Shown here: positions 343 through 21,596 of the stretch, one piece after another
Layout: each line of letters starts with the position of its first letter
Numbering within the stretch: position 1 is the stretch's first letter
Origin: a virus
Taxonomy: Duplodnaviria; Caudoviricetes
IMG/VR virus record: IMGVR_UViG_3300047288_000038
Coordinates: 1 to 25,581 of that record
Strand: one strand, 5' to 3'
Length of the DNA stretch: 25,581 bases
Position numbers and translations under genes: made by a program
The notes under the pieces: model-generated
What the model was told of the DNA's origin: nothing
Database searches by the model: none
Seen by the model: the letters and a program-made list of their open reading frames with translations, nothing else

Positions 343-364
343 CTTTGCGTTAAACTGTTGCACC

Positions 365-390
365 GCCCGCTCTGTTTCCACGGAGCGGGC
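365..390 (+). promoter_or_regulatory. GC-rich stem-loop in the leader upstream of queE
   Basis: GCCCGCTCTG (365-374) pairs with CGGAGCGGGC (381-390), 10 bp with one G-U. No U-tract follows. Confidence 0.5.
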
Positions 391-432
391 ACCCTTACCT
401 CCCAGGCTTTGCCTGTAACCTATGGGATTAAA

Positions 433-1149
433 ATGAATATCCAACCGATTGAAAAGCGTCGCGAAAGCGACGGAACTTCCTTACAAGTTCATTCCGTCTT
501 TAATACAATTCAAGGCGAAGGTCCATTCACTGGACGTGCGGCGGTCTTTATCCGCCTCGCTGGTTGTAATCTACAATGCCCAGCGTGTGACACGGATTAC
601 ACGACCGACCGTTGGGACTCTACACCATTCACACTAACGCAGATGGCGCAAGAAATGCGACCTGCTCCCTCGCTTGTGGTCATCACAGGCGGGGAACCAT
701 TCCGCCAGAATATCTACCCGCTTGTGAATTCGCTTATCGAAGCGGGTTACACGGTACAGATCGAAACGAATGGAACACTTCCGCCACCTGACGGCCTTGT
801 GGAACTTTGCGCGACGAATACATCGATTCCGAATAAGTGCTTCATTGTGTGCAGCCCTAAAGCAGGTCGAGTGAATACTATTACCGCGACGCTCGCTTGT
901 GCTTACAAATACGTCATGGCGCATGACAGCGTGGCAGCTGATGGGCTTCCTTTGCTTGCACTTGACCACAGTGCGTCACCGCATGTTGCCCGCCCTCCGG
1001 AATGCTTTAGCGGTCCGATCTATCTGCAACCTTGCGACGACAAAGATGTTGTCGTTAATCAAGAGAACTTGAAAGCGTGCGTCAGATCTGTTATGTCACA
1101 CAATTACGTTCTTCAGTTGCAAGTTCATAAAATTATTGACATGGAGTGA
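433..1149 (+). CDS. queE: 7-carboxy-7-deazaguanine synthase (radical SAM)
   Basis: F.TIQGEGPFTG, IRLAGCNLQCPACDT (CxxxCxxC), ITGGEP, IETNG and LQLQVHK motifs. ATG at 433 is preferred over the track start at 358. Confidence 0.95.
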   Translation: MNIQPIEKRRESDGTSLQVHSVFNTIQGEGPFTGRAAVFIRLAGCNLQCPACDTDYTTDRWDSTPFTLTQMAQEMRPAPSLVVITGGEPFRQNIYPLVNSLIEAGYTVQIETNGTLPPPDGLVELCATNTSIPNKCFIVCSPKAGRVNTITATLACAYKYVMAHDSVAADGLPLLALDHSASPHVARPPECFSGPIYLQPCDDKDVVVNQENLKACVRSVMSHNYVLQLQVHKIIDME

Positions 1150-1151
1150 TT

Positions 1152-2528
1152 ATGTGTTCGATTGTCGGCGCACTGGTGCAGCGCATAGATACGCACCAAA
1201 AGGTTCAAGCTGTTAATGACATCCTAGAACATATCTGGCAAGCCAGTCACGAGCGAGGTCGCGATGGACGTGGGTTTGTCATTAACTCCAGTGCGGAGAG
1301 CGATCTGCAAGCATACAAAGACGTGACGCGAAGCAACGGGCGAGCGATGCAGGCGCCTGCTTTGCATAGAGTGTGTCGCTCTGCGACCATTGTCGGAAAC
1401 CTTCGAGCTGAACCGACTACTGAATTCGTTCGTGAAAAGCGTTTGTCTGATCAGCAGCCCTACACGTCCGGAAATTGGTCTATTGCCCATAACGGCACTA
1501 TTGCCAACGACCGCGAACTTCGTACGCAAGATCTTCCCACAGGTATTGACAGCGCAGCAATCGCGGAGCAGTTGGCGTCTGCTAATGGTACGCTGGGCGA
1601 CTTTGTAGAAGTTATCCATAAGCTCAAGGGTAGCTATGCAATCTTGGCAACCCATACAGGGCACACGGACAAACTGTTCGTCGCTGCAAACTATCGCCCA
1701 ATCTGGTACATCGACACGCCTTATGGTGTCTTCTTTGCAAGCTCGCGTGATTACCTTCCGCAGGAATATCCGTCGCGCATGTTAAAGCCCTACACAGCGG
1801 CACTATTCGATATGAATGGTCTGCGTAAAGAAGTGACCTTGTATCGAGATAATGTACAGGGCGAACGTGCGCTGGTCGTGTGCAGCGGTGGCCTGGACAG
1901 CGTGGTCAGTGCGGCTTACGCACAGCGGGAACTCGGCTTGGATATCCACCTGATTCACTTTCTGTACGGTAGCCGCGCAGAAGGTCCTGAGGTGAAAGCA
2001 ATACAAGCGGTCGCGGAGTACCTTGGTGCGGAATTGTCACTGTTTAACCTGCCTGTCTATTCGAAAGGTGATTCACCATTGCTGGATCCCGATAGTAAAG
2101 TGGCGGGAGGAGAAGCTGGTGCAGAGTTCGCTCACGAATGGGTTCCTGCCCGGAACCTGCTGCTCCTGTCCGTTGCAACTGCATTCGCAGAGGCGCGAGG
2201 CATTGACACCATCGTTCTTGGAAACAACCTTGAAGAAGCTGGTGCATACCCTGACAACGAACCGGAGTTCATTGCCCGCTTCAATGATTTGCTTCCCTTC
2301 GCTGTTGGTGATGGAAAGCGAATGCGGGTTATTATGCCCGTAGGCAACCTTATGAAGCATGAGATTGTCGAACTTGGGAACCGCATTGGCGCCCCTATGC
2401 ACTTGACTTGGAGCTGCTATCGCGCCGGTGAATTGCATTGTGGAACCTGCGGCCCGTGCTTCATGAGACGTAAAGCGTTTGAAATTAACAACATTCCCGA
2501 AGTCATTTCTTATAAGGACGAACAATGA
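1152..2528 (+). CDS. queC: Glutamine amidotransferase (class II)-QueC fusion (Gat-QueC)
   Basis: Starts M-C-S-I (Ntn catalytic Cys) at ATG 1152 after GGAG. GATase motifs ERGRDG and HNGTIAN are followed by QueC motifs SGGLDS, VPARN, YPD, TWSCY and CGTCGPC. Confidence 0.93.
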   Translation: MCSIVGALVQRIDTHQKVQAVNDILEHIWQASHERGRDGRGFVINSSAESDLQAYKDVTRSNGRAMQAPALHRVCRSATIVGNLRAEPTTEFVREKRLSDQQPYTSGNWSIAHNGTIANDRELRTQDLPTGIDSAAIAEQLASANGTLGDFVEVIHKLKGSYAILATHTGHTDKLFVAANYRPIWYIDTPYGVFFASSRDYLPQEYPSRMLKPYTAALFDMNGLRKEVTLYRDNVQGERALVVCSGGLDSVVSAAYAQRELGLDIHLIHFLYGSRAEGPEVKAIQAVAEYLGAELSLFNLPVYSKGDSPLLDPDSKVAGGEAGAEFAHEWVPARNLLLLSVATAFAEARGIDTIVLGNNLEEAGAYPDNEPEFIARFNDLLPFAVGDGKRMRVIMPVGNLMKHEIVELGNRIGAPMHLTWSCYRAGELHCGTCGPCFMRRKAFEINNIPEVISYKDEQ

Positions 2529-2968
2529 AACGAATTACAGCAGAACGATATCACGATATCAGCACGGGCCACCGCGTCGTAGGCCATGAAAACAAGTGCC
2601 GTCACCTTCACGGTCACAACTACCGAATTCACTTTGTTTGTGAAGCTGACGAACTGGATACAGTGGGGCGCGTCATTGACTTCGGTGTGATCAAAGAAAA
2701 GCTGTGCATGTGGGTTGAGAACTATTGGGATCACAAGTTCCTGGCATGGGAGCGTGATCCTGTAATGACGCTCGCATGTGACCACATGGAGCACGACGAA
2801 TTCTTTAATGCGTCCGTCGTATTTGTACCGTTTAATCCGACTGCTGAAAACATGGCTCAACACCTTGTGGAAGTAATTGGCCCGCAACAACTCGCTGACA
2901 CTGGTGTGACGCTGGTGTCTGTCCGTATCGAAGAGACTGCTAAGTGCAGCGCATCATTTCACGCTTAA
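2525..2968 (+). CDS. queD: 6-carboxy-5,6,7,8-tetrahydropterin synthase
   Basis: GHR...KCRHLHGHNY, VIDFG, DHKFL, PTAEN and EET motifs. ATGA overlap with gat-queC. Confidence 0.95.
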   Translation: MKRITAERYHDISTGHRVVGHENKCRHLHGHNYRIHFVCEADELDTVGRVIDFGVIKEKLCMWVENYWDHKFLAWERDPVMTLACDHMEHDEFFNASVVFVPFNPTAENMAQHLVEVIGPQQLADTGVTLVSVRIEETAKCSASFHA

Positions 2969-2978
2969 GGAGCAAAAC

Positions 2979-3890
2979 ATGCAAACAAAATTGACTCACG
3001 ACCGAATTGGCGCACTGGTGGCACAAACCTCTGAAGCGATTCGCCAATACGCACATGGCGGCACAGTGCCGATCGCGGCCCTTACGGCCTACGCTGTGCC
3101 ACGCGGGGGCATTCCCGTAGCGTATGCGCTGCAAGGCGTGCTCGGTTTCCAGCTTACCGACGATCCTGCCGACGCCGATTTCTTTATTGATGATCTTATT
3201 GACAGCGGTTCGACCTGCGAACGCTACTGCGACGAGCATCCGGGAAAACCTTTCTTTGCTCTAATTGACAAGCGCATTGACAGCGAGTTCAAAGATTTGT
3301 GGATTGTGTTTCCTTGGGAAGTAACGGACAGTGGCAAGGACGAATCCGCAACGGATGCGATCGTTCGTCTGTTGCAATTTGTGGGTGAAGATGCAGATCG
3401 CGAAGGTCTGCAAGAAACTCCCGCTCGTGTGGTCAAAGCGTGGCGCCATTGGTGCAGTGGGTACGGTAAGGACGCCGGTTCGTTGCTCAAAGTGTTCGAA
3501 GATGGTGCAGAGCGTTATGATCAGATGGTTCTGGTAAAAGACATTCCAATCTATTCCCATTGCGAACACCACTTGGCAGCAATCATTGGCACTGCATCCA
3601 TCGCTTACATCCCTGACGGTAAGATTGTAGGCTTGTCAAAGCTGTCACGCCTTGCTGATATGTTTGCGCGACGTCTGCAAGTGCAGGAACGACTCACGGA
3701 TCAGATTGCTGACGCACTGGTAGAACACCTCCAGCCTTTGGGCGTCGGCGTGCTAATTAAAGCGCGTCATCTCTGCATGGAATCGCGAGGTATCTGCCAG
3801 CAGGGGCATCATACAGTGACCACAGCTCTTCGAGGCGCCATCAAAGACGAAGCTCAAACTAGAGCTGAGTTTTTACGTCTTGCGGACTGA
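2979..3890 (+). CDS. folE: GTP cyclohydrolase I with N-terminal type I phosphoribosyltransferase-like domain
   Basis: C-terminal FolE motifs REGLQETPARV, SHCEHH, VGLSKLSR, RRLQVQERLT and HLCMESRG. The N-terminal ~114 aa carry VPRGG, FFIDDLIDSGST (PRPP loop) and WIVFPWE. AAGGAG RBS. Confidence 0.92.
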   Translation: MQTKLTHDRIGALVAQTSEAIRQYAHGGTVPIAALTAYAVPRGGIPVAYALQGVLGFQLTDDPADADFFIDDLIDSGSTCERYCDEHPGKPFFALIDKRIDSEFKDLWIVFPWEVTDSGKDESATDAIVRLLQFVGEDADREGLQETPARVVKAWRHWCSGYGKDAGSLLKVFEDGAERYDQMVLVKDIPIYSHCEHHLAAIIGTASIAYIPDGKIVGLSKLSRLADMFARRLQVQERLTDQIADALVEHLQPLGVGVLIKARHLCMESRGICQQGHHTVTTALRGAIKDEAQTRAEFLRLAD

Positions 3891-3942: not shown

Positions 3943-3957
3943 GTGACTGGAGGTTCT

Positions 3958-4881
3958 ATGAACATTTTTATGGCGGCGGTATATACGAACTCCTATATGC
4001 AGGGTCAGAACCGTTATCTTAAATTGAACGATCGTGAAAAAGATATCGTTCATAATATCCCGCATATCCTGGAGTCATACCACTACATCGGATCACAGCG
4101 TTATCTTGACCAGATGCGAGCCGACAATGCACAGGTCTTTCTTGACTCCGGTGCGTTCTCTGCTTACACGCTCGGAGTTGAAATTGACTTGCCAACATAT
4201 TGTGACTATATCAAGCGCAACATGGATCTTTGGCGTGTAGAAGACGGGGTCGTGATGGCGTCCGTGCTTGACGGTATTGGTGATCCGCTTAAGACATACC
4301 AGAACCAGCTCCACATGGAGCAGCTTGGCGCAAAGCCACTTCCCTGTTTTCATGCAGGCGAAGACGAACGATATCTGGAGTATTACGTCCAAAATTACGA
4401 ATATATCACGCTTGGCGGCATGGTGGGCAGCTCTACGAAGCAGCTTTGCATATGGCTTGACCGCATGTGGGAGCGTTACCTTACCGATGGCAGCGGACGC
4501 CCGCGCCTGAAGGTGCATGGATTCGGTATTACCGCCATTCCAATCATGGAGCGTTATCCATGGTATAGCGTGGATTCGTCCTCCTGGATTCAGTCTGCTG
4601 CATTCGGTAGCATCATCACCCCAGACTGGGGGCCGTTATCCGTATCAGAAAAGTCACCGTCCAGGCACGACGCTGGACAGCACGCAACGACGCTCACAGC
4701 TATCGAGCAGGACTACGTCTTGCAGATGCTGGAGAAGCAGGGTTTCACATATGAGCGTCTGAGTAGTGTGTATGAGTCCCGAGCAGCCTATAATCTGTGG
4801 GCGTTCGGTGTTATCAACGAAATGATGAACGCTCAGAACAACTATGAGCAATTCACTCACCAAGTCCAGGAGCTCTTCTAA
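3958..4881 (+). CDS. dpdA: DpdA-like DNA 7-deazaguanine transglycosylase (TGT fold)
   Basis: FLDSGAFS, PCFH, LGGMV, VHGFG and SVDSSSW motifs, located next to the preQ0 synthesis genes. ATG 3958 follows GGAGG. Confidence 0.8.
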   Translation: MNIFMAAVYTNSYMQGQNRYLKLNDREKDIVHNIPHILESYHYIGSQRYLDQMRADNAQVFLDSGAFSAYTLGVEIDLPTYCDYIKRNMDLWRVEDGVVMASVLDGIGDPLKTYQNQLHMEQLGAKPLPCFHAGEDERYLEYYVQNYEYITLGGMVGSSTKQLCIWLDRMWERYLTDGSGRPRLKVHGFGITAIPIMERYPWYSVDSSSWIQSAAFGSIITPDWGPLSVSEKSPSRHDAGQHATTLTAIEQDYVLQMLEKQGFTYERLSSVYESRAAYNLWAFGVINEMMNAQNNYEQFTHQVQELF

Positions 4882-5840
4882 TGCTTGCAGAATTAAAGTT
4901 TGTGCAGGGTGCAGTCGCTAAAAAAGATTTCATCCCATCGCTGTCCCACTTTGTAATCGAGAACGGAACAGTCCGTGGATATAACGGTATGCTGGCACTT
5001 TGCACGCCCATTCCGTTTGACATTGAATGCAAACCCAAGGCTGAACCGCTTGTCAAAGCGATCAGCAACTGCACAGAGACCGTTCAACTTGCACTAACGG
5101 CAGCAGGGCGCCTATCGATTAAGAGCGGTAAGTTCAAGGCTTTTGTGGATTGCCATCCGGACGAAAGCACGCCACACGTTCAGCCTGAAGGCGAGCATGT
5201 GGTCATAGATGGCGCTGCAATGCTGCAGGCCTTAAAGGTCGTCTATCCGTTTATTGGTGACGATGCTTCCCGTCCATGGTCGAATGGTGTGTTGCTGTTG
5301 GGGCAAAGTGCATTCGCGACCAATAACATCACGCTCGTTGAATACTGGACTGGGTCTAGCGTTCCAAAACCGTTAAACATACCAAGAGCAGCGATTAAGG
5401 AATTACTTCGCATTGACGAAGCTCCTGAAGCTGTGCAGATGACCGAGACGTCTATCACTTTCCATTTCACAAAGGGGCGCTGGCTTCGAACGCAACTGTT
5501 CGCAACACAGTGGCCTGATCTGACAAAGGTGTTGGGGCGGGATAGTGACCCGCAACCATTGGACGATCGATTGTTCGAAGCACTTAAGACATTGAAACCA
5601 TTCACTGATAAAGCTGGTCGCATCATTTTTAGAGGCGCTGGTAAAATAGCAACCCATGACGATGAAACCGAAGGGGCTGGCTATGAAATTGACGGGTTTG
5701 ACCACACTGGCGTCTATCAGATTGATATGCTGAATCTTCTTAACGGTAACGCAAAGTCTATCGACTGGTCTGCTTACCCGTCGCCTTGTATGTTCTTTGG
5801 TGACCGTTTGCGTGGCGCCATTATCGGGATGAAGCAGTAA
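4881..5840 (+). CDS. DNA polymerase sliding clamp (beta-subunit-like) protein
   Basis: 319 aa. Beta-clamp-like segments include AVAKKDFIPSLSHF, IGDDASRPWSNGV, AFATN and QWPDL. TAATG overlaps with both neighbours, and it lies directly before the polymerase. Confidence 0.7.
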   Translation: MLAELKFVQGAVAKKDFIPSLSHFVIENGTVRGYNGMLALCTPIPFDIECKPKAEPLVKAISNCTETVQLALTAAGRLSIKSGKFKAFVDCHPDESTPHVQPEGEHVVIDGAAMLQALKVVYPFIGDDASRPWSNGVLLLGQSAFATNNITLVEYWTGSSVPKPLNIPRAAIKELLRIDEAPEAVQMTETSITFHFTKGRWLRTQLFATQWPDLTKVLGRDSDPQPLDDRLFEALKTLKPFTDKAGRIIFRGAGKIATHDDETEGAGYEIDGFDHTGVYQIDMLNLLNGNAKSIDWSAYPSPCMFFGDRLRGAIIGMKQ

Positions 5841-7873
5841 TGTCACGAGCGGATATCTGCGGGTTTTTCTGGGACGATACACCACCGCCAAAGCCCCCAA
5901 AGGCCGAGAAGCCCAAGCGCACGCCGCCGGAGCGCACTTGGGAGCGTCCAGACTACCTTCCCGGCCTAAACGATGCTTTAGCGTTCCGCGTTCCGCAGTT
6001 TGAAGACTGGGAGCTTGCGATCGCTGCTGCAAAGCGCGAACGGTTCGTGTTCGACATCGAGTGCTATTGCAACTATTTCTTGATCGCTTTCACTTCGCTT
6101 GCAAGCGGAAAGGTTATCTATTTCGAGCGCACAGCGAACCATGATTTCAACCGCGACAAGTTGCAATGGATTGTCAATACGTTCTGCCTTGTGAGCTTTA
6201 ACGGTATCGAATACGATATACCAATTCTATCCATGGCTTTAGCTGGTAAGTCTAACGCACAGCTAAAAGCAGCAACGAATGAAATTATTGCAAACGGAAC
6301 GCGCCCGTCCGATGTGCTTCGCACTTACAAAGTAAAGGCGCTAAAGCCCAACCACATTGACCTGATTGAAGTTGCACCGCTTCGCGCCAGTCTTAAGATC
6401 TATGGCGGACGCTTGCACGCTCCAAGAATGCAGGATTTACCGTTCCACCCTGAGACAACTTTGTCCCCTGAGCAGATGGCGATCGTTCGCTGGTATTGCG
6501 TCAATGACTTAACGAATACCGCTATTCTTCACGAATCGCTTAAAGAGCAGGTTGAGCTTCGCGAGTCCATGGGTAAAGAATACAAGATGGATCTTCGTAG
6601 TAAGTCCGACGCGCAGATTGCTGAAGCTGTTATTGCGGAGGAGATTGAACGCTTGAACGGAGTGCGTTCGCAGCGGCCAGTCATTGAACCTGGAACCCGT
6701 TACAAATACAAGATTCCGCACTTTATCAAGTACCAATCCCCTCTCATGAATTGGGCGCTGGATGTTGTTCGGAACGCCAACTTTATTGTTAGCGAAGACG
6801 GTAACGTGGGGATGCCCGAAGAGCTCAAGGCGCTACGCTTGCAGCTTGCGAACGGGGTCTATCGCATGGGCATTGGCGGTCTGCACAGCTCGGAGCAGTG
6901 TGCCGCGCATTACGCTGACGCCAATACACTGCTCATTGACCGTGACGTGACGTCTTATTACCCGTATATCATTCTGAATCAGGGTCTTTACCCGCAACAC
7001 TTGGGCCCCAACTTCTTGAAGGTCTATCGCACGCTTGTCGATAGGCGTATTGCAGCAAAGCACGCGGGAAACAAAGTCATCGCAGACTCGCTTAAGATTA
7101 CGATTAACGGGTCATTCGGCAAGCTCGGAAGTAGATATTCCGTTCTGTACGCTCCCGACCTACTAATCCAGACAACGGTGACGGGTCAGTTATCTTTGCT
7201 GATGCTAATTGAGCGCCTGGAGCTGGTAGGCATACCTGTGGTCAGCGCAAACACGGATGGCATCGTTATCAAGTGCCCCACAGCACGCCAAGCGGAATGT
7301 GATGCGATTGTGAAGCAGTGGGAGACCGATACGGGTTTTGAAACGGAAGACACGCAGTACCTCGCAGTCTTTAGTCGAGACGTGAATAATTACATTGCAG
7401 TAAAGAAAAAGTTTGACAAAGAAACAAAGCAGTGGCTCTACAAGCCGGACGGGTGCAAGACTAAGGGTGCCTATGCAAACCCAGAGAAGCCTTCCGACCG
7501 ATTGCACAAGAATCCAACGAACCAAATCTGCGTCGATGCGGTCATTGCATTGCTGACGCATGGAACGCCTGTAATGACCACAGTACGCTCTTGCACCGAT
7601 ATCCGGAAGTTCGTGTCCGTTCGTACTGTAAAAGGTGGCGCAGTTAAAGACGGTCAGTTCCTGGGCAAGTCTATCCGCTGGTACTATGCAGCAGGCGAAG
7701 ACGGTGAAATTGTGTATGCTGACAGCGGGAACAAGGTTCCGCGTTCTGAAGGTGCAAAGCCGCTGATGGACTTGCCTGCAGAATTTCCGCAAGACGTGAA
7801 TTATGAATGGTACGAGCGCGAAGCCGAGCGGATGCTAGTTGATATCGGTTATATGGAAAAACCGTCGAACTAA
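5840..7873 (+). CDS. Family B DNA polymerase with 3'-5' exonuclease
   Basis: Exonuclease motifs FDIECY, SFNGIEYD and YCVND. Polymerase motifs DRDVTSYYP, KITINGSFGKLG and SANTDGI. Confidence 0.9.
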   Translation: MSRADICGFFWDDTPPPKPPKAEKPKRTPPERTWERPDYLPGLNDALAFRVPQFEDWELAIAAAKRERFVFDIECYCNYFLIAFTSLASGKVIYFERTANHDFNRDKLQWIVNTFCLVSFNGIEYDIPILSMALAGKSNAQLKAATNEIIANGTRPSDVLRTYKVKALKPNHIDLIEVAPLRASLKIYGGRLHAPRMQDLPFHPETTLSPEQMAIVRWYCVNDLTNTAILHESLKEQVELRESMGKEYKMDLRSKSDAQIAEAVIAEEIERLNGVRSQRPVIEPGTRYKYKIPHFIKYQSPLMNWALDVVRNANFIVSEDGNVGMPEELKALRLQLANGVYRMGIGGLHSSEQCAAHYADANTLLIDRDVTSYYPYIILNQGLYPQHLGPNFLKVYRTLVDRRIAAKHAGNKVIADSLKITINGSFGKLGSRYSVLYAPDLLIQTTVTGQLSLLMLIERLELVGIPVVSANTDGIVIKCPTARQAECDAIVKQWETDTGFETEDTQYLAVFSRDVNNYIAVKKKFDKETKQWLYKPDGCKTKGAYANPEKPSDRLHKNPTNQICVDAVIALLTHGTPVMTTVRSCTDIRKFVSVRTVKGGAVKDGQFLGKSIRWYYAAGEDGEIVYADSGNKVPRSEGAKPLMDLPAEFPQDVNYEWYEREAERMLVDIGYMEKPSN

Positions 7874-9670: not shown

Positions 9671-10150
9671 TTACAGTTTTGCAGCTTCGACAAACAAATT
9701 GTCGATCTGTTCTTCCGTAAGTGGCAAAGCGGAAGCGATGGATTTAACGAGTGGTGAATAACGCTGAACGTCTTGTGCATACTCCCATTCAATACGAGCA
9801 GCTTCGCCCTCTGTGCCAGGCATTGCAGCGACAGCGTCTGTAACCACAGTGAGCAACCCTGCATTCAATAGCGCAAGGCGTGCCTGGCGCATACTAACGG
9901 TCTGCGGGCCTTCCGGAGGGGGTGCAACGTATTCGGGAAGCTCCGGAGCCACTGCGTCGGGAAAGTTCTTAGCGGTGAAACCGAATCTCTTCACAACACT
10001 TTCGTCTTTGACAGCTTTCCAGACCTTAGCTTCGTCATCTTTTTCCAGACGGTAAAGCGTGCCTTCCAGGGTCTTCATAAAAGCATCATGTTCCGGAGTA
10101 CCCTCTAGGGCATCCAAATCTTCGCGGGTGTTAATTACAACTGACACCAT
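9671..10150 (-). CDS. Two-domain protein; C-terminal part resembles tail-fibre-associated/assembly proteins
   Basis: An N-terminal INTREDLDAL...RFGFT segment, a Pro-rich linker, then SMRQARLAL...IEWEYA...SPLV...LTEEQIDNLF. Overlaps the RT 3' end by 20 nt. Confidence 0.65.
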   Translation of the reverse strand: MVSVVINTREDLDALEGTPEHDAFMKTLEGTLYRLEKDDEAKVWKAVKDESVVKRFGFTAKNFPDAVAPELPEYVAPPPEGPQTVSMRQARLALLNAGLLTVVTDAVAAMPGTEGEAARIEWEYAQDVQRYSPLVKSIASALPLTEEQIDNLFVEAAKL

Positions 10151-11117
10151 ATCGGTTCTCCATCCAATTAAAAAGGTTATTCGAATCTGCCCACTGTACG
10201 TGACCAGACCATGCAGCTAGAAACTTTTGCAGCGACTCTGAATCATCTCGTGTAATATACCTTTGAATCTTTCTTTTTGCACGGATGACGGAATCTTTCC
10301 TCAGTAGTTTGTGAGTGGGCCAAATACGGTATCCAAGGAAGTTAATACCTTGACTGATTGGGCTTACTTGCCACTTACTGATTCGCATACCCAGTTCGTT
10401 AAACGAGAATTCCTGTATGCGATTAAATATACGGTGAAGCTGCTCAGGATCGTCTCCTAGAATAACAACGTCGTCCATATACCGCGCCCAATGACGCTGG
10501 CCCAACTCAAAGTGAATAAGCCTATCCACCGCGCCACCATACACGTTAGCGAATAGTTGGCTGGTAAGACTACCGATAGGCAAACCCTTTCCGGTCTGCG
10601 GAATTATCTCACGCAGAATGTTCAGCGTACCCTGACAGCTAATCTTGCGATCGATCATTCGGTGGAGAACGCTGTGGTCAATGCTTGGAAAAAACTTACT
10701 GAAATCGGTCTTAAGAAAATACTTGCAGCCTGTGCTTCTTAAGCTGGCTTGAATATGTTTGACGCCTGCGTGTGTTCCTTTACCTGTTCGACAAGCAAAC
10801 GTATAAGGCATCAAAGTCTTTTCGAATATGGGTGCGACCACATTGCATGTCGCGTGCTGAACTAATCTGTCTTTGAAATCAAGTGCAGAAATAAGTCGTT
10901 CCTTAGGTTCGAAGATTGTGAATTGGCGGTATTCGCCAATCTTGTATCTTCCCTCCTGGAGTTCTTTCTGTACTTCCAACAAATTAGCTTCGGCGTATTC
11001 TTTGAATTCCAGAAAGCCGAATGTCCCACGCTTACCCTTTGACGTCTTGGTGTAGGCGTCCCGTAAGTTGTCTATGACCACAATCTGGTCGATTAAGTTT
11101 CTATGTTTCTTTGCCAT
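10131..11117 (-). CDS. brt: DGR reverse transcriptase (328 aa)
   Basis: Start MAKKHRNLIDQI at ATG 11117. Motifs FKDRLVQHA, KTDFSKFFPSI, GLPIGSLTSQLFAN (DGR-typical SQ), RYMDD and INFLGY. The track's 535-aa ORF includes 207 upstream codons spanning the spacer, TR and avd. Confidence 0.96.
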   Translation of the reverse strand: MAKKHRNLIDQIVVIDNLRDAYTKTSKGKRGTFGFLEFKEYAEANLLEVQKELQEGRYKIGEYRQFTIFEPKERLISALDFKDRLVQHATCNVVAPIFEKTLMPYTFACRTGKGTHAGVKHIQASLRSTGCKYFLKTDFSKFFPSIDHSVLHRMIDRKISCQGTLNILREIIPQTGKGLPIGSLTSQLFANVYGGAVDRLIHFELGQRHWARYMDDVVILGDDPEQLHRIFNRIQEFSFNELGMRISKWQVSPISQGINFLGYRIWPTHKLLRKDSVIRAKRKIQRYITRDDSESLQKFLAAWSGHVQWADSNNLFNWMENRYGVSCN

Positions 11118-11277
11118 AAAGAAGTTGGCAGCGCCTTTCGATATTTCACTACTCTGCGCTCTACCAAACCGTGTAGAGTGTTTCCCGAAGGAGGACAGAA
11201 CCGGCTGACCACACATTAAATGGTCTGCTCGCAAAGCCTTAGCGTTTGCGAAGCGATAACATTGTGCAGACACAGCA
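11118..11277 (-). ncRNA. IMH* and structured TR-RT spacer of the DGR template RNA
   Basis: 160 nt between TR and the RT start. Hairpins: TCGCAAA/TTTGCGA (11229-11251), TCC-TTCG-GGA on the - strand (11183-11192) and CTCTAC/GTAGAG. Confidence 0.6.
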
Positions 11278-11386
11278 GCCGCGGGCGCCGATGTTGTTGT
11301 TCGAATTCCAAGGATAATTGTTCCAATTCGAGCATCGCGAACCAGAGTTCGACCCGTTGTTCCAGTTGCCCCCAAAGAGCGCAGCA
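11278..11386 (-). repeat. DGR template repeat (TR)
   Basis: 109-nt near-copy of 11800-11908 (offset 522) beginning right after the avd stop. In the VR frame it reads AALFGGNWNNGSNSGSRCSNWNNYPWNSNNNIGARG (11 AAY codons). Confidence 0.97.
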
Positions 11387-11764
11387 TTATTTCCCGGCCT
11401 GCCCTTTGCGTCGCCTTGTCTTTATCCAACTGACCAACGGCTGTCCCACTTCGGCGACCTGCAATTGAGCGGTCTGAAGCTGGTGTGGCGTCATGCAGTG
11501 TATCGAGACAAGGAAGCGCATCCAAAACCGTAGATTCGACAGAGCCGCTTCTACGGAATAGATTTCTGAAACCCGTTTCGACTTGCCAGCCTGATGCAAT
11601 ACCTCGGGAATGCCGAGTAAGCAGGTCAGGAACATATCTCGAGCGATTCCGTGTTTCCGCGGAATGGATTGTGCAATCGGATAAAGGTAAGCGATGACTC
11701 GCTCGTACTTTTCCAGGATTAGCATCTGCTCGAAACATTTAACGGCGTCCGAAACGGGTTCCAT
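11387..11764 (-). CDS. avd: DGR accessory variability determinant (four-helix bundle)
   Basis: 125 aa, basic, lying between target and TR. The sequence MEP...QMLILEKYERVIAYLYPIAQSIPRKHG...LRFWMRFL...EVG...SWI...KGQAGK matches my recollection of BPP-1 Avd. Confidence 0.93.
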   Translation of the reverse strand: MEPVSDAVKCFEQMLILEKYERVIAYLYPIAQSIPRKHGIARDMFLTCLLGIPEVLHQAGKSKRVSEIYSVEAALSNLRFWMRFLVSIHCMTPHQLQTAQLQVAEVGQPLVSWIKTRRRKGQAGK

Positions 11765-11772
11765 TATTTAGA

Positions 11773-13095
11773 TTACTCAAATTTCAGGTGGTCACATACG
11801 CCGCGGGCGCCGACGTCGCTGCCCGAATACCAAGGATAACTGGCCCAAAGCGAGCACCGCGAACCAGAGGACGACCCGTCGCCCCAGAGGCCCCCAAAGA
11901 CCGCAGCAACTAGAGCGATATCGCTGTAGAGATAAAGCGAACCGCGCCCACCGGATACAGCACGCCAGTTCCAAGGTGTAGAAGCCCCGTCTTGGCGGTA
12001 GCTAAACTCATCTCCCCAAGTCCAAAGAACGCCAGTCGCTTGGATAACGCCCCAGCGGGACGTGTAGGCAGCGTTCAGAATTGTGCTGACCTGATCTGTA
12101 CCGACAGAAGACGCTTCAGTAGAGCCATATGCAAGAGCAGAGAATTCGCTATATGTCGGAAGACGTTTGCCATGCGATTTCAGCACTTCAGCAGCTTCCC
12201 ACCAGTTCATAGAAGCATAAGCGTTCGTTCCTGTACCGCCAAACTTCGTCGGAATCTTAGGAGGGCTAGAACCGTCAGCCATTGTGACGTTATATTTTGA
12301 CGTCCCGTTAGTCAAGTGATCAACGCCTGTGAAATAAATGTCAGCCCAGAACCCACCTGCTACCAGCGTCATTCCGCGTGGATCAATTGAAGCTGGACGG
12401 AACTTAAGATCCCAGAAGCTGTATTCGTTAATCTGCGGAGTAGTGTTGCCACCAGTTTGAGCGGCAGCGTTACCGCCCGGGGCGTAGTGGAATCCACCAA
12501 TTTTGCGCCAGTTACCAGCGCCTGGAGGTGATGTAAAGTTTGCACTCGCTTGGATCGTTGCGTCGTCTTTTACCCAGACCGCATAATCGGTTCCGTTTGT
12601 AAGTGCAGGCATCGTGATCGCGGTCACAGTAGTGTATTCCACCGTCTTACCAGCGACGTCAATCTTACACGCTTTAATGGAAGCGGTTCCGTTGCCTGTC
12701 TTTGTAAAAAGAACAGTTTCTGGATCCACTTTATAAAACAGACCGAACTTACCCATCAAGTCAGCGTACTGCTTAGTCGCAGCGCCAAGAGCGAGTGTAG
12801 GGTCTGCGCTTAGAATCAGCGGACCTGTCATTGTGTCGCCTGCGATATCCACTTTGCCGTCGCCTACAAAAGAACTCAGCAAAGCAAGCGTCAAGCTCTT
12901 GTCTTCCGTACCTTGGCGGGTAAGAAGCAAGTCGGTTCCGCTTGTGGTAGAAGCTGCGACAAGATCTGCCAGCGTTACCTTAGTGGCGCCCAGTTTGGAC
13001 GTGATGGTGGCTTCGTTACCAGCAAGCGAAAGGATTGCAGCTTGCTGATCGAGCAGCTGGCGAACCAGTACTTCTTCTGTTGCAGTTAATGACAT
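11773..13095 (-). CDS. mtd: DGR target: tail fibre/receptor-binding protein with Mtd-like C-type-lectin-fold C-terminus
   Basis: VR encodes its last residues (...GARGVCDHLKFE). Mtd-like segments include GGFHYAPG, INEYSFWDLKFRP, FWADIY and HGKRLP. The N-terminal region has the fibre motif GDTMTG...AATKQYAD. Confidence 0.92.
   Translation of the reverse strand: MSLTATEEVLVRQLLDQQAAILSLAGNEATITSKLGATKVTLADLVAASTTSGTDLLLTRQGTEDKSLTLALLSSFVGDGKVDIAGDTMTGPLILSADPTLALGAATKQYADLMGKFGLFYKVDPETVLFTKTGNGTASIKACKIDVAGKTVEYTTVTAITMPALTNGTDYAVWVKDDATIQASANFTSPPGAGNWRKIGGFHYAPGGNAAAQTGGNTTPQINEYSFWDLKFRPASIDPRGMTLVAGGFWADIYFTGVDHLTNGTSKYNVTMADGSSPPKIPTKFGGTGTNAYASMNWWEAAEVLKSHGKRLPTYSEFSALAYGSTEASSVGTDQVSTILNAAYTSRWGVIQATGVLWTWGDEFSYRQDGASTPWNWRAVSGGRGSLYLYSDIALVAAVFGGLWGDGSSSGSRCSLWASYPWYSGSDVGARGVCDHLKFE
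11776..11812 (-). promoter_or_regulatory. G/C element and IMH (initiation of mutagenic homing) at the VR 3' end
   Basis: A 14-nt G/C-only run CGGCGCCCGCGGCG (11812-11799) is followed by TATGTGACCACCTGAAATTTGAG. This diverges from the TR counterpart TGCTGTGTCTGCACAATG. Confidence 0.8.
11800..11908 (-). repeat. DGR variable repeat (VR)
   Basis: Ungapped alignment to TR with 20 mismatches, 19 at TR adenines. Encodes AAVFGGLWGDGSSSGSRCSLWASYPWYSGSDVGARG. Confidence 0.97.
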
Positions 13096-14268: not shown

Positions 14269-15696
14269 TTACACCCCGACCACAGTGATTCGCGCTTCGT
14301 CAAACAAAGCAAGCTCCGCACGCGCCACCGATACGTTCAATGTGCTATAAGAAGGCGTGTCCGAGATAAGATTAGTCATTGCAGCTTCCACCGTAATGGA
14401 ACCGATTCCGCTTGTTGCGGAATAGATCGGGCCGTAGAAACGCTGAGTGATAATGTCTTCACCGATGCCAATAGTATCGGCAAACGCTATGACAGCAGTC
14501 TTAATCGCTTGCACGACTTCGGTCGTAAGAACTTCTTCGGGGTTTAGCGTGTTCACACTAACGCGAATCCATGCAAACTTGTCAGCAGGACGCGAAAACT
14601 TACAAATCTGAATATCGCCGTTCTCGTCCAGAACTTGAATACTTGTATTGCCGTAAGTTTCAATTCCAGCGGGTTTAACTTCGAACAACTTATCAGCGAC
14701 CGCTTGATTTGAACCGCCGTCAATTACTGCTTCAAATGAATGCGGAGGAAGATTAAAAGAGTCGATTACGTTTGTTCGGTTTTCATAGATGGAACAATAA
14801 ACAACAGAATCCACTTCTGCAAGCATACGAGAACGAATTGCCTGTGCTGTTGCAGCTCCAGTCACGCGAACGCTGTTGGAGTGTCGGTTGCGAAGTTCTT
14901 CGTCTGTTTCAACAAAACGTCCAGTGGCGCCAGCAACAAGGTTATTCACTTCGTCCCACCCGACAACGGAACTATCCATGCGGGTCAAAGCGTTTGCAGG
15001 CAGTGCATAAGCGCCATTATCCAGGGCGGTAAAAACGACAGGCGTTCCAAGTGTGGTAATGGCGAGCTTGCTATCCACACTGAGCGTGAAGTCGCTATAT
15101 AAATCCGCAGAGCGAAGACGCAACTTACCGCCTTCCGCAGTTGCAAGGAAGTTATTCGCGTCGAATAGTGGCGCCAACCCTGCTGCAATTTCTTCAGCAG
15201 TAGCACTAGCGTCGGACGTATATACAACACTCACACCGTTCGCGATCACTTGATACGTCGCAAGGTTTGTGACCGTATGGGCTTCGATAATTACATCACC
15301 GGAACTTGAGCGACTGATAACGCTGTCTGCCGTGGTGACATATTGTCGATTATCCAGCGAGCGTGCAAGCGCACCAGCGGGGATCAACGTGCTTTCAGTA
15401 CCGTAGCACATAGCGACCACAGTTGTCGGCGTAGCGCCCAGGCGCTCTAGCCCTACAAACGACACCGCGCCGTCTAGCGAAGTACCTTCCGCAGTTGCGG
15501 GATACATGCTGTCATAAGTGTTCTGCAGAGCTTCGTAGGTATCGTCCAGCGCAGCGGAAAAGATACCAATGATTTGACCGACCACAGCATCCGCGTTCGT
15601 ATTGACAGGGCCAAGCGCATCAGTGAAGCGTTTGTCGTAGTCGGTTTTGATTTCGTTTAAGCGGGGACGTTCGAACCCCTGTACGGTTAAGCTCAT
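14269..15696 (-). CDS. Baseplate J-like wedge protein
   Basis: PATAEGTSLD, GRFVETDEELR, LPPHS and KPAGI motifs. Confidence 0.88.
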   Translation of the reverse strand: MSLTVQGFERPRLNEIKTDYDKRFTDALGPVNTNADAVVGQIIGIFSAALDDTYEALQNTYDSMYPATAEGTSLDGAVSFVGLERLGATPTTVVAMCYGTESTLIPAGALARSLDNRQYVTTADSVISRSSSGDVIIEAHTVTNLATYQVIANGVSVVYTSDASATAEEIAAGLAPLFDANNFLATAEGGKLRLRSADLYSDFTLSVDSKLAITTLGTPVVFTALDNGAYALPANALTRMDSSVVGWDEVNNLVAGATGRFVETDEELRNRHSNSVRVTGAATAQAIRSRMLAEVDSVVYCSIYENRTNVIDSFNLPPHSFEAVIDGGSNQAVADKLFEVKPAGIETYGNTSIQVLDENGDIQICKFSRPADKFAWIRVSVNTLNPEEVLTTEVVQAIKTAVIAFADTIGIGEDIITQRFYGPIYSATSGIGSITVEAAMTNLISDTPSYSTLNVSVARAELALFDEARITVVGV

Positions 15697-16040
15697 GCGG
15701 ATACCTCGATGACCCCGTAGGGCGTGTCTGCTGTAAATTCAACGGAAAGTTTCCGCGTTGAATTGCTGAATGTGTAATCGAAAGACAATATCTGGCGAAC
15801 GCCTTGAACTTCTAGAATGCTTTTGCGTAGCGCAGCAAGAGCGCCAGATAGAGTTAATTGCTTGCCTAGGATCTGCTGAAGGTAAGGGGTTCCGAATTCG
15901 GTATCAAGGAACCACTCACCCCGCCAGAGCTTTAGTTTGATGAGTAATTGTTGGCGCACCTGTTCAGCAGCATCCACCAGCTTCAGATCTAGCGAACTGG
16001 TGTCAAGGTCGTGGGATGTTGTGAGCGCGATATCAAGCAT
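15693..16040 (-). CDS. Baseplate wedge/sheath initiator (gp25-like)
   Basis: LKLWRGEWFLDTEFGTPY, ILEVQGV and TPYG motifs, between spike and J. Confidence 0.8.
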   Translation of the reverse strand: MLDIALTTSHDLDTSSLDLKLVDAAEQVRQQLLIKLKLWRGEWFLDTEFGTPYLQQILGKQLTLSGALAALRKSILEVQGVRQILSFDYTFSNSTRKLSVEFTADTPYGVIEVSA

Positions 16041-16047
16041 GTCGAGG

Positions 16048-16077
16048 ATGATAACATTTCCAATCTAAGTCCATCAA
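16048..16077 (-). promoter_or_regulatory. Putative promoter giving a leaderless transcript
   Basis: TTGATG, 18 nt, TATCAT with extended-10 TG. Only 7 nt separate it from ATG 16040, and no SD is present. Confidence 0.4.
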
Positions 16078-16087
16078 GTTATAGGCG

Positions 16088-16777
16088 TCAAACAGGAGCT
16101 CCCGTATTACCGCCACCAGGCTGCACACCGCTATGAACGTGAGTATGAAGCGTCTTGCCATTGCTGGTAAGGTTTCCACTACTGTGATTGATGTTTCCAG
16201 TAATTGCGGTTCCGTTACCGCCACCAGTGCCCGCCATACCGTCTTTATAAGTCAGCAGGCCATCTGTGGTCAGCGTTCCTGTGTTTTGTGTGCTCGGCGT
16301 GTTAATAGTCGTTCCGCCAGGAGCGTTAATTTTAAGTTCTCCGCCTGCTGTAAGGCGTATGTAAGCAGGGCCGAAGAACATAGTCATGTCGGCATTGTTC
16401 CCGCTATCACCCTGACCTGCGTTTCCAAGGTCGCACATTACAGCGTAAGCATCTTGTAAGTCAAACATGCGCCGATCGTCTGTGCCATCGACTGCCTGTT
16501 GCGAAAATACAAGCAGGCATTTATCACCCGCTTTTACAGGACCTTTGACACCAGCAGAACCACCTGCAAACGAAGGCCAGCAGACACGCACATTCGGAAT
16601 GATAGGGTAATCCAGGACGTCACCATCTGCGAATCGTTTCTTAGGTGTCGGGGCCACACGAGCAAGCCCGTTCGCATAAGAAACAATCGTCGCGGGAAGT
16701 GCTGTATTGACGTCAAGCAGTTGGGACCGAATAAGGCCCATGAGTGCTTCGACTGGATTGTTTGATGTTTCGGACAT
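16088..16777 (-). CDS. Baseplate central spike (Gp138-like N-terminus)
   Basis: OB-fold N-terminus (TALPA, PVKAGDKCLLVF, RRMFDLQDA), a Gly/Thr-rich beta region and a C-terminal HTHVHSGV metal-binding tip. Confidence 0.85.
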   Translation of the reverse strand: MSETSNNPVEALMGLIRSQLLDVNTALPATIVSYANGLARVAPTPKKRFADGDVLDYPIIPNVRVCWPSFAGGSAGVKGPVKAGDKCLLVFSQQAVDGTDDRRMFDLQDAYAVMCDLGNAGQGDSGNNADMTMFFGPAYIRLTAGGELKINAPGGTTINTPSTQNTGTLTTDGLLTYKDGMAGTGGGNGTAITGNINHSSGNLTSNGKTLHTHVHSGVQPGGGNTGAPV

Positions 16778-17700
16778 TATTTTACATACCTTAAAGTCAA
16801 TTCACTGTGCCATTCGTTGCCATGAGTGTCACCGCTATGCGTAAGCTCTTCAATACGAAAGAACTCACCGTCAATTCCAGCTGACTTCACTTGCACATAA
16901 CCGCCGGGCTCTAGCAAAGGCTGCAACAAGCTCTTGACCTTATAACCCAGGACCTTCAGCATCTGTTGGACTTCACCATCTTTGTCGCGCTCAGTAGTTT
17001 TCCGAACGCCAGGTTGTTTTTCCGTAATGCCTTCTTTAGCCGCTGCCTTTTCGGTCATTGTTTTGGACTCGCCCATAGGGGAACCGATAAGCCCAGTGTC
17101 AGGTGACAGCAGATAGGCCTTTTGCTTAAATACGCCACCCTTCTTAATGATCTGGATCTCTCGGTTCTGTATGCTCCACTCTAGACCTCCGTTCTCGCAC
17201 ACCTTGTCCATAGCATCGCGCACACGCCCAACGAATGCAAAGCCTGCGGGATACTGTTTCTTGGCAATATCCGTTGGCAACGGACGCACAGGAAGACCGA
17301 ACTTCTTACTGATGGCGGTCACGACTTGCTGAACCGTTGCGCCCTTAGCAAAGGACAATGAAATCTTGGCGTCACGGAACTCCATGAACCCGTCTTGCAT
17401 TTCTAGCTCGGTGACCCAGTCAGGGCCTTCCCGAACGGTAAGAGTGCGAGTGATGTTTCCACTAAAGATAGTCTGGGCGCCAATGTCTTCGCTGTAACCC
17501 GCTTTCAGCACCATCACATTTCCAATCACTTCAATAAGCGAACGGGTTGCAGGCGCAGCATTCCAGATCTTCACTGTGCATTTATTCGGGGACTTTGTTG
17601 CACCCTTTTGGATGCTAAACGAAAAGCGAAGGTTGGACAGTTCTTTACTGTCACCCCCTTCTTTACCAATAACCAGCGACGCGACACGGTTAAACAACAT
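16777..17700 (-). CDS. Baseplate hub protein
   Basis: LKAGY, IFSG, WSIQN, LLSPDTGLIGSP and HSGDTHGNEW pattern, plus synteny. Confidence 0.78.
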   Translation of the reverse strand: MLFNRVASLVIGKEGGDSKELSNLRFSFSIQKGATKSPNKCTVKIWNAAPATRSLIEVIGNVMVLKAGYSEDIGAQTIFSGNITRTLTVREGPDWVTELEMQDGFMEFRDAKISLSFAKGATVQQVVTAISKKFGLPVRPLPTDIAKKQYPAGFAFVGRVRDAMDKVCENGGLEWSIQNREIQIIKKGGVFKQKAYLLSPDTGLIGSPMGESKTMTEKAAAKEGITEKQPGVRKTTERDKDGEVQQMLKVLGYKVKSLLQPLLEPGGYVQVKSAGIDGEFFRIEELTHSGDTHGNEWHSELTLRYVK

Positions 17701-17703
17701 GGC

Positions 17704-18138
17704 TTATTGATCCCAAAGTGTGGAACCAGTGTCCCAAGTGGAAAGACCGCTATCCCATACCGTACCGATGACAGCTTCACCAATCTGCTGACGTACAGGT
17801 TGAGCAGTGACCACAGCATCCGCTTCGTAATAGTACAGCCCGAAGGTCACGCCAAGGTCGCTATATCCGGGGCGTGCGGAAGAACCCTTTTCCTGGATAA
17901 AATACAGATCACCGAAAGGAAGAAGTTCGTTCTTAAAGCGTCCGATTAGCGGATAGTTCTTTACCATTTTCACATTCGTGAGCAAGGGTGACTCGTTTGC
18001 CTCCATAATGGAAAGCGTAAAGTAACCGAATCGCTCGTTCCAAAGGACGCGCAGGATATAAGGGTTTCCATCCAGCTCTACGCTGACAAGCTGATCCGTT
18101 GTTTCCGGTTGCAGTGGGATCTTTTGAATGAGCGACAT
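17704..18138 (-). CDS. Small baseplate/virion protein
   Basis: VELDG.PY.LRVLWNER pattern and synteny. The C-terminus has WD-spaced repeats (WDSGLSTWDTGSTLWDQ). Confidence 0.65.
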   Translation of the reverse strand: MSLIQKIPLQPETTDQLVSVELDGNPYILRVLWNERFGYFTLSIMEANESPLLTNVKMVKNYPLIGRFKNELLPFGDLYFIQEKGSSARPGYSDLGVTFGLYYYEADAVVTAQPVRQQIGEAVIGTVWDSGLSTWDTGSTLWDQ

Positions 18139-18743
18139 TATTTTAGAATCCTTGCTAGTGTGCTGGAAGGCTTCTGAACTGTTTCAGGCTGCTTCTTGCC
18201 TGCGTCCTTAGTTGGTTCAGTTTTCTTACCAGTGCTGGCATCGCCCTTGGCATCTTTCTTAGGGTTAATACCATCAGGGACATCCACCATCATCGTCGCG
18301 ACCTTGCGAATGTGAATAAACTCCGCATTGAATTCCAATGCTTCGCCCACACCAGCTGAACGCGGGATTGTCACGTTTGTCAAAACCATGTCGTCATAGA
18401 TACGATGCTTCGTATAGACCGTCATCGGTTCTTTAAGCTTCAGCAATTCGTGCAACAGATCGAAAGTGGTTTGTGTTCGGTTGCCTGTGCGCCCAAAATT
18501 AAGAATCCCGTTAATGGATTGGCTTAAAGTGAGCGGGCTATCAGTCACAAAACCTTTAATCGTCAGTTGATCCGCTTGGTCGATAATGTGGTCAGTTACA
18601 GGAGCACCAATTTCAACGGGGTTGCTAGTTGCCTCAGCGGACCATTCGTGCGCCTCTTCCAGAACCGCATCAAGTTCAATGTTTCCGAACATATTGCCGA
18701 ACGATGTCTGCAAACTGTTCCCGCCAAAGAAAAGTCCAATCAT
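18138..18743 (-). CDS. Tail tube initiator/Dit-like protein
   Basis: LDAVLEEAH...TSNPVEIGAPVTDH and YDDMVL motifs, directly after the tape measure gene. Confidence 0.75.
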   Translation of the reverse strand: MIGLFFGGNSLQTSFGNMFGNIELDAVLEEAHEWSAEATSNPVEIGAPVTDHIIDQADQLTIKGFVTDSPLTLSQSINGILNFGRTGNRTQTTFDLLHELLKLKEPMTVYTKHRIYDDMVLTNVTIPRSAGVGEALEFNAEFIHIRKVATMMVDVPDGINPKKDAKGDASTGKKTEPTKDAGKKQPETVQKPSSTLARILK

Positions 18744-18752
18744 GTTTCGTCC

Positions 18753-20432: not shown

Positions 20433-20436
20433 TTCA

Positions 20437-20697
20437 TCACCTCTGTGTCTTTGCTGCTTCGTACTGGGACGCTTCTATGTCTGTTTGCATGTCCAACAAT
20501 GCGTTGAGCGACTGCAAGTCTTCCACCGTAGCAGTTCCATCCTTTACCTCTCTGAGCGTCACTTTCCCTGCAAGGATAGGACGCCAGATCCACAGCTCGT
20601 CGCTTACTTCGTCGGCGAGCTTTCCAGGGACACTTGGCCCGTCTTCGCGCCTTCGATCAGACCGCCAAAGCGGTCCATCATGGATGCGAAAAAAGGG
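20437..20697 (-). CDS. Post-frameshift (-1) portion of the tail assembly chaperone (G-T fusion), missed by the ORF track
   Basis: The -1 frame is open from the slippery CCCCTTTTTTC (20698-20688) to TGA 20439-20437. It reads ...ELWIWRPILAGKVTLREVKDGTATVEDLQSLNALLDMQTDIEASQYEAAKTQR. Confidence 0.78.
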   Translation of the reverse strand, partial: PFFRIHDGPLWRSDRRREDGPSVPGKLADEVSDELWIWRPILAGKVTLREVKDGTATVEDLQSLNALLDMQTDIEASQYEAAKTQR

Positions 20698-21068
20698 GCA
20701 AACTGATACCTCGCGACTTCAAAGATCAACTGGTAAAGGTCGAACAGGTTTTCGGTCGTAAAGCACTGATCAATATCGGTCCCGGATTTAATAAACTTCT
20801 TGTTCTCTACACTGAACACCTTTGACTCGGCAAACAACGGAAGAACGATATTGTCCATCACGGACTCGTCCAAGTTCTCCGAAAGCACTTTTGCAGCTTG
20901 TTCGACATCCATATCCATAAGACCTTTGCCCTTGCCCGCGGTGGCAATAGTGCCGATGATAGGCACAGCAATCTTCTGGATTCGCATCAGCAGCTTATTG
21001 GCTGCAAACGCATTCATGCGAACGCAAGTGTATTCACGTTGGCCGATGATAAAGGTTTCTTGTTGCAT
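20604..21068 (-). CDS. Tail assembly chaperone
   Basis: Lies between tube and tape measure genes, with a GAGGA RBS and a slippery site near the 3' end. Confidence 0.8.
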   Translation of the reverse strand: MQQETFIIGQREYTCVRMNAFAANKLLMRIQKIAVPIIGTIATAGKGKGLMDMDVEQAAKVLSENLDESVMDNIVLPLFAESKVFSVENKKFIKSGTDIDQCFTTENLFDLYQLIFEVARYQFAPFFASMMDRFGGLIEGAKTGQVSLESSPTK

Positions 21069-21106
21069 GTCAGTTCCTCGAGTGTGGTCAATGCGGTGAG
21101 TATAGC

Positions 21107-21132
21107 AAAACGGGGCCTTGTGGGCCCCGTTT
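21107..21132 (-). terminator. Intrinsic terminator after the tail tube gene
   Basis: AAACGGGGCC/GGCCCCGTTT stem with a 5-nt loop, ending in TTTT on the - strand. Confidence 0.7.
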
Positions 21133-21145
21133 CACTTCCCTCAAC

Positions 21146-21586: not shown

Positions 21587-21596
21587 TCATTTCTCC

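Follow-up and report, generated by a model that had tools for sequence, protein, structure and literature searches.

The closest described relatives of the protein domain studied here are the purine phosphoribosyltransferases (PRTs) of the Gpt/XGPRT type from E. coli (b0238, 1a95) and Yersinia (6kp5), together with archaeal and Helicobacter purine PRTs (1vdm, 4z1o, 7kl6), with which it shares a common fold at Z 11.4-12.1. In Gpt, residues D92, K115, W134, E136 and D140 are those that we take to form the 6-oxopurine pocket. The PRT fold is also found in non-catalytic, regulatory proteins such as PyrR and PurR. [quoted passage not shown]

The second system against which the locus has to be set is the modification of phage DNA with 7-deazaguanines. 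In E. coli, phage 9g's DpdA together with its Gat-QueC is enough to place dG+ in DNA (PMC6884629). Three phage groups, those of phiST, immuto_2-6A and Campylobacter CP220, are reported to be fully substituted, while the activity of DpdA3 could not be shown in E. coli (PMC10516641). No description of a PRT domain on FolE was found in the literature searched, including the available portions of the text of PMC6884629 and PMC10516641 (with supplements), PMC10484667 and PMC7472734, and a published table names the fused PRT-FolE proteins of dG+ phages plain FolE. In GenBank, stand-alone copies of the domain are already annotated as PRTs, and the annotation of one copy also names queuosine.

A 7-deazaguanine modification cluster with a fused FolE

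The window, by which we mean the whole stretch of 25,581 nucleotides analysed (IMG/VR record IMGVR_UViG_3300047288_000038), is a linear virus record that represents about 39% of a genome. Its plus strand encodes a QueE-like radical SAM protein (358..1149), Gat-QueC (1146..2528) and QueD (2525..2968), all recognised by profile matches, followed by a PRT-FolE fusion of 303 aa (2979..3890) with AAGGAG upstream of its ATG, a DpdA-type DNA transglycosylase (3943..4881; phrog_887, E 4e-96), a sliding-clamp-like processivity factor (4881..5840; profile matches) and a phage DNA polymerase (5840..7873; phrog_1252). With folE, queD, queE, gat-queC and dpdA together, the window holds the gene set of a 9g-type dG+ cluster, and the order queE, gat-queC, queD, folE, dpdA, clamp, polymerase is common to the window and to NP1, 9g, PaMx25 and Quinobequin P09 (Queuovirinae). 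The NP1 homolog of the window's DpdA is entered as DpdA in the supplement of PMC6884629, where the DNA of Quinobequin P09 is recorded as partially substituted with dG+. NP1, PaMx25 and Quinobequin P09 also have the PRT-FolE fusion, about 71% identical to that of the window (71% for P09), whereas FolE of 9g has 204 aa and is without the PRT domain.

The FolE half (3339..3890, plus strand) is an intact GTP cyclohydrolase I by profile, fold and alignment. It scores 229 bits with PF01227 and 210 bits with TIGR00063 (cut-off 181.6), adopts the T-fold in the model as judged by structure search, and retains all eight core residues scored against E. coli FolE (C195, H197, H198, K221, E237, H264, C266 and R270), presumably the zinc and catalytic residues. 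Among its homologs, some PRT-FolE fusions of about 580 aa are interrupted in the FolE half by an intein that contains an HNH endonuclease (P0141, P0186; L132, L382), and a subgroup of about 340-350 aa (P0124, P0152, P0162, P0195, P0224; L028, L030, L034, L036, L037, L039) has about 40 additional residues after the PRT domain and a more divergent FolE.

A Gpt-like PRT domain that has lost loop II

Residues 1-114 of the fusion (2979..3320, plus strand) are a Gpt (XGPRT)-like type I PRT domain without loop II, as found by profile, structure and alignment. A preliminary description of the DNA had seen three PRT motifs ahead of FolE, VPRGG, FFIDDLIDSGST and WIVFPWE, and all three are there. The loop I motif PRGG within VPRGG (P41-G44; 3099..3110) aligns with Gpt S36-G39, the PRPP-binding loop FFIDDLIDSGST (D71-T79; 3189..3215) with D88-T96, so that D75 corresponds to D92, K98 (3270..3272) with K115, and the purine-pocket motif WIVFPWE (W108-E114; 3300..3320) with W134-D140, all on the plus strand. 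The gap between RGG and DD, estimated earlier at about 27 aa, comes to 26 residues between G44 and D71. The same description had given about 50 for E. coli Gpt and suspected that the catalytic loop was deleted; indeed, the offset from R to the first D is 29 in the domain and 51 in Gpt (NC_000913.3), so the domain is without 22 residues that take in loop II. A second deletion, which the preliminary description did not mention, removes 9 residues before the purine motif (D-to-W offset 37 versus 46 in Gpt). Compared with Gpt, the domain keeps the RGG loop, the DDxxD[ST]GxT loop, the equivalents of K115 and W134 and the PW plus acid motif, may by prediction form a similar dimer, and differs in the two deletions and the fusion to FolE; in the pocket, D75, K98, W108 and E114 are kept, while E136 is replaced by V110 and Q137 by F.

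A search of the fusion protein against Pfam gives no match for the PRT domain, and the Gpt model NF006613 reaches 15 bits against a curated cut-off of 138; the match of the single sequence to phrog_8995 is likewise weak (E 1e-4). Kinship with Gpt emerges from further comparisons: all six PDB sequence matches at E<=10 are XGPRT, and a 67-row profile of the domain finds XGPRT at E 2e-11. AlphaFold modelled the fusion with a pLDDT of 91.5, and in this model the domain superimposes on XGPRT 6kp5 with Z 12.1 and rmsd 2.3 Å over 111 aligned residues (wide VIA search). Among PRTs 6kp5 ranks first, with four others less than 1 Z unit behind. The PRT fold and the relationship to Gpt proposed from the motifs are therefore borne out by both profile and structure. 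Because loop II is missing and the family score lies below its cut-off, we do not class the domain as Gpt itself. Foldseek with the full fusion model returned FolE matches only. A single-sequence fold of the domain (pLDDT 45) was set aside.

A two-copy model of residues 1-165 obtained a dimer score of 0.59 (best control 0.00), with at least 88% of contacts agreeing between runs and a partner pLDDT of at least 76; among solved pairs 20 of 30 attain the mark used, among single chains 1 of 23. In the predicted interface, helix 44-55 and P112-W113 pack against the partner's PRGG loop. The models thus predict a Gpt-like dimer of PRT domains sitting on the FolE scaffold, and the dimer score may itself stem from resemblance to solved Gpt. 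PyrR has the fold in common with the domain (1w30, Z 9.4) and uses it for ligand binding. In contrast to PyrR and PurR, however, the domain has a purine-type pocket closest to that of Gpt, shows no nucleic-acid-binding part, and is retained without a functional partner domain, as described below.

The domain in other viruses

A search with the region returned 351 proteins, with FolE present in 119 of the best 120, and a search of 50%-identity representatives returned 490. Among the best 150 of these representatives, 61 run into FolE, 48 end in a tail of 30-70 aa that resembles the first FolE helix, 30 have a tail shorter than 30 aa and 11 are of other form. Genomic contexts of the proteins of about 150 aa that consist of PRT plus helical tail were covered for L255, L284 and L317 only; two alignment-seeded viral scans gave nearly only fusions, and some of these short proteins may be assembly errors, which L024/P0121 resembles. 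Conservation was scored in the best 120 and the best 150, both chosen without reference to a motif. D71 is conserved in 120/120 and 150/150; for D75 the figures are 119/120 and 141/150, for K98 they are 120/120 and 126/150; the R-to-D offset is 29-34 in 117/120 and 23-40 in 128/150, the remainder being unparsed. The DD and PWE motifs were the selection pattern of a genome scan and were therefore left out of the conservation evidence. That motif-only scan, which covered 12 of 64 parts of IMG/VR, yielded at least 120 loci (98 with the fusion, 16 that did not score as fused, 3 cut short and 3 unparsed).

The co-occurrence with dpdA that had been suggested as a check is nearly complete: counting only distinct viral fusions flanked on either side by 4 kb or more, dpdA adjoins 62 of 63, queE is found with 62 and queC with 49. 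Cultured phages present a sparser picture, with 406 records matching the whole protein and only 34 the N-terminal domain. In phages MiCath and BA3 the cluster is there but the PRT domain is absent, and their FolEs are nested among fused ones, grouping with the window protein and NP1 (SH-aLRT 95 in a quick tree of 68 FolE rows), a placement that suggests loss of the domain. Since such close relatives lack it, the PRT domain is dispensable. The profile phrog_8995, which detects the fused form weakly, found no Gpt-type PRT in MiCath or in three phages that modify their DNA only in part (9g, CAjan and Rosebush), while the control F379 matched; FolE genes as short as those of 9g, Rosebush and MiCath have no room for the domain.

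Stand-alone PRTs of deazaguanine phages

Flavobacterium phage immuto_2-6A encodes a PRT of 131 aa (gp211, offset 29) directly upstream of folE. Of 80 loci related to it, 78 have an offset of 29-35 and 71 contain folE, which may stand on either side; 50 have dpdA3, 41 a MazG-like gene and 19 a kinase. A Gpt-type PRT is encoded by each of the three groups reported to be fully substituted, with those of phiST and the Campylobacter Firehammerviruses located away from folE. The stand-alone proteins of phrog_8995 (immuto gp211, phiST CGPG_00045, Campylobacter F379_164 and Brevundimonas MaInes) resemble the window domain in their Gpt-type motifs and in keeping company with deazaguanine genes; they differ from it in being unfused and mostly accompanied by DpdA3. 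F379_164 is labelled 'purine phosphoribosyltransferase / queuosine biosynthesis protein' in GenBank. Unlike the window domain, the PRTs of phiST (offset 53) and MaInes (offset 59) have a full loop, and loss of the loop is thus not tied to full substitution, as phiST demonstrates.

Stand-alone Gpt-type PRTs also adjoin folE or queE in Brevundimonas phage MaInes (L245), Pseudomonas jumbo phage MIJ3 (L246) and Synechococcus phage BUCT-ZZ01 (L248), which are candidates for G substitution; in MaInes the row reads polymerase, RNR, dNMP kinase, folE, PRT.

Bacterial carriers with a decayed FolE

Applied to GTDB genomes, the motif scan found 83 loci, of which 46 are titled Dehalococcoidia or Tepidiformaceae; no que or dpdA gene was found within 5 kb of these 46. 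At ten loci examined by Pfam scan, with imperfect ORF picking, those neighbours that could be named are cellular genes of ordinary kinds and one YhhQ-family transporter. This YhhQ/Vut_1-family gene (L253:3854-4621) stands head-to-head with the PRT-FolE gene of one Dehalococcoidia genome.

The FolE half of 44 Dehalococcoidia fusions has decayed, with K221 kept in 0/44, H197 and S220 each in 5/44, H264 in 6/44 and R270 in 12/44, while the same positions are kept in 141-142 of 142 viral proteins. The PRT half of these fusions has PRGG, which was not part of the selection, in 44/44 and K or R at position 98 in 44/44. Across the series L253-L330 the three zinc ligands of the fused FolE are kept and the GTP-binding residues lost. 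The decayed half may be a dead scaffold or may have acquired a new function, and in two Dehalococcoidia loci (L255, L284) it is reduced to a FolE-like tail of 41 aa. Between the domains, dN is higher in FolE than in PRT in 166 of 168 Dehalococcoidia pairs as against 5 of 72 viral pairs, pairs being non-independent; only this reversal was used, given that the absolute dN/dS values of Dehalococcoidia (0.57, 0.68) are probably inflated by high GC. In the tree, which has long branches and calls for caution, eight Dehalococcoidia representatives form one clade nested among viral fusions.

The five carrier genomes tested all have a separate, higher-scoring folE, and none has hpt or xpt over the cut-off or a match to phage-type dpdA (the positive control matched); in two carrier genomes neither tgt nor queC was found. 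In a class-wide sample of 151 genomes, an hpt-like match is present in 106 and absent from 45; the eight genomes that carry the PRT domain are all without such a match (hand count), as are 37 genomes that also lack the domain. A Fisher test of this exclusion (1.3e-4) takes no account of shared ancestry and was not used as evidence, and the pattern may reflect a single event because the carriers are one clade of metagenome assemblies. Seven new profile matches turned up in the sample, of which one is cut at a contig end and six lie on contigs that, judged by length, had already been found by the motif scan, so decayed copies were not missed by that scan in the sample. Outside this class, three Peribacteria/Peregrinibacteria genomes (L263:4749-5720, L293:4785-5738 and L300) have the fusion with an intact FolE and with PKSG in place of PRGG. 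In the two of these loci that were scanned, the fusion adjoins folK, DHFR or thyA; no hpt or dpdA match was found in the three genomes.

Discussion

The PRT domain described here is an overlooked component of 7-deazaguanine DNA modification, hidden in genes annotated as plain FolE, among them those of culturable phages with measured dG+. We propose, with a probability of roughly 60%, that it is a Gpt-like PRT predicted to convert free guanine and PRPP to GMP despite the missing loop II; both the catalysis and the substrate are what we infer, and to that same degree guanine salvage is favoured over a sensor for FolE and over a preQ0-activating enzyme. Guanine recycling is likely because some bacteria keep the PRT while the attached FolE decays and hpt is not found in their genomes. 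The near-invariant PRPP and purine residues, the linkage to dpdA and the Gpt-type PRTs of all three groups reported to be fully substituted point the same way.

In the phage, DpdA would expel guanine from DNA and the PRT domain would clear it, returning GMP to the GTP pool that feeds the attached FolE. For a genome of 58 kb in which one G in four is replaced, and a burst size of 100, we calculate that some 7 x 10^5 guanines would be released, near 1 mM in a 1-fL cell, at a cost of as many GTP. For the human transglycosylase the constants for guanine and queuine are similar, and 7-deazaguanines are not salvaged by HPRT (PMC8136771). Free guanine can thus compete in the exchange, so a guanine sink would pull the transglycosylase reaction forward, and the benefit would be the removal of a competing base with the refund of one GTP per swap. 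A low turnover would be expected, that is, a slow guanine PRT. Direct channelling is not envisaged because host kinases are needed to turn GMP into GTP. On this proposal the PRT domain is an accessory booster and no obligatory step of the pathway. Of the three roles considered in the preliminary description, the recycling of guanine fits best; its restriction to guanine released by DpdA has to be given up, since the domain persists in bacterial genomes without a dpdA match.

The main objection to guanine salvage is the loop itself. According to a second-hand account, T. cruzi HPRT lacking 7 residues of loop II loses 380- to 840-fold in kcat (PMC9536471), and here the whole arm is missing. The replacement of Gpt E136 by V110 also counts against it. 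Furthermore, many hosts can be expected to own guanine salvage, and the clusters of MiCath and BA3 do without the domain.

The best-placed alternative, which we nevertheless consider unlikely, is that the domain is non-catalytic and binds PRPP, GMP/GTP or (p)ppGpp, thereby tuning FolE or soaking up alarmone. The deletion of loop II would fit this role: HPRT of B. subtilis from which loop II has been removed in part binds pppGpp like the wild type (PMC6783271), so the conservation of the motifs also fits binding alone. A PRT-fold protein with bound ppGpp, 5vog, matches the model at Z 11.5, the unfused gene still stays beside folE in either order, and the Peribacteria/Peregrinibacteria fusions combine an intact FolE with folate and thymidylate genes at both loci scanned. 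However, the domain is retained where its own FolE has lost GTP-binding and catalytic residues, and also where only the short helical tail is left, as in L255 and L284 and in about a third of the best 150 representatives. The gating of FolE in its earlier form is weakened by these cases, in which the partner is inactive or absent; action in trans on another FolE would be compatible with the decayed fusions.

Somewhat less probable still is an activating enzyme that would convert CDG, ADG, preQ0 or a derivative to the ribonucleotide and so open a pre-replicative route to modified dGTP. Among cultured phages, matches to Gpt-type PRTs are all but confined to genomes that have deazaguanine genes, the three fully substituted groups among them, and the neighbourhood of unfused copies often includes a MazG-like gene, a nucleotide kinase, or RNR with dNMP kinase. 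The failure to demonstrate DpdA3 activity would also agree with such a route, and loss of the loop might, speculatively, leave space for a 7-substituent. In contrast, D75 and the pocket residues are alike in clusters with Gat-QueC, QueC, QueC plus QueF or no QueC (63 fusions) and in Dehalococcoidia, and the pocket is thus independent of the end product of the cluster. Neither a MazG-like gene nor a nucleotide kinase was found within at least 4 kb of the 63 fusions with profiles built from the immuto genes only; for the window, which is a fraction of its genome, helper genes may lie elsewhere. Moreover, the close relative Quinobequin P09 is only partly substituted, and the domain persists in two genomes without a tgt, queC or dpdA match. 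A pre-replicative reading suits the DpdA3 phages better than the window, because 9g DpdA and Gat-QueC sufficed for dG+ in E. coli. Taken together, these points weaken the conversion of preQ0 to a nucleotide as first suggested.

A changed chemistry, in which the open site would break down GMP, PRPP or stray deazaguanine ribonucleotides by hydrolysis or pyrophosphorolysis in preference to salvage, is very improbable; loop II has been proposed as a water shield of the transition state that prevents PRPP hydrolysis (PMC9536471), but the wasting of PRPP or GMP is hard to reconcile with retention on hpt-less bacterial chromosomes. That the domain is a relic carried along, or has a structural role and no other at the N-terminus, as its absence from close relatives might hint, is hardly credible in view of a median dN/dS of 0.24 (72 viral pairs) and ligand residues that are near-invariant over 150 clusters at 50% identity.

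If guanine salvage is accepted, a wider and more tentative picture, which we would sooner bet against than for, can be drawn: a type I PRT family that works without a loop thought universal for catalysis could have arisen as a guanine sink for phage base-swapping and may be needed for complete replacement of G, and a Dehalococcoidia lineage could have taken it over, on a dead FolE scaffold, to be the lineage's sole enzyme of 6-oxopurine salvage. In a bolder form of this picture, the open site would take 7-deazaguanines and supply the missing step to fully substituted genomes. The domain may explain why DpdA3 failed in E. coli and what drives heavy substitution. A PRT without loop II is in any case a natural test of the need for this loop in PRT catalysis, and the Dehalococcoidia genes make complementation simple.

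Other features of the window

Further downstream, the minus strand of the window holds a diversity-generating retroelement (DGR; 10131-13095). It comprises the reverse transcriptase (10131-11738), Avd (11387-11764), an Rfam Phage_DGR RNA (11124-11254), the template repeat (11271-11386) and the variable repeat (11793-11908), the last within an Mtd-like tail fibre; between the repeats, 19 of 23 mismatches fall at template adenines. Tail genes on the same strand (14269-22925) resemble, by our impression of their translations, the baseplate and sheath of a contractile tail, and this contractile-looking tail would differ from that of the siphovirus relatives with the same modification module.
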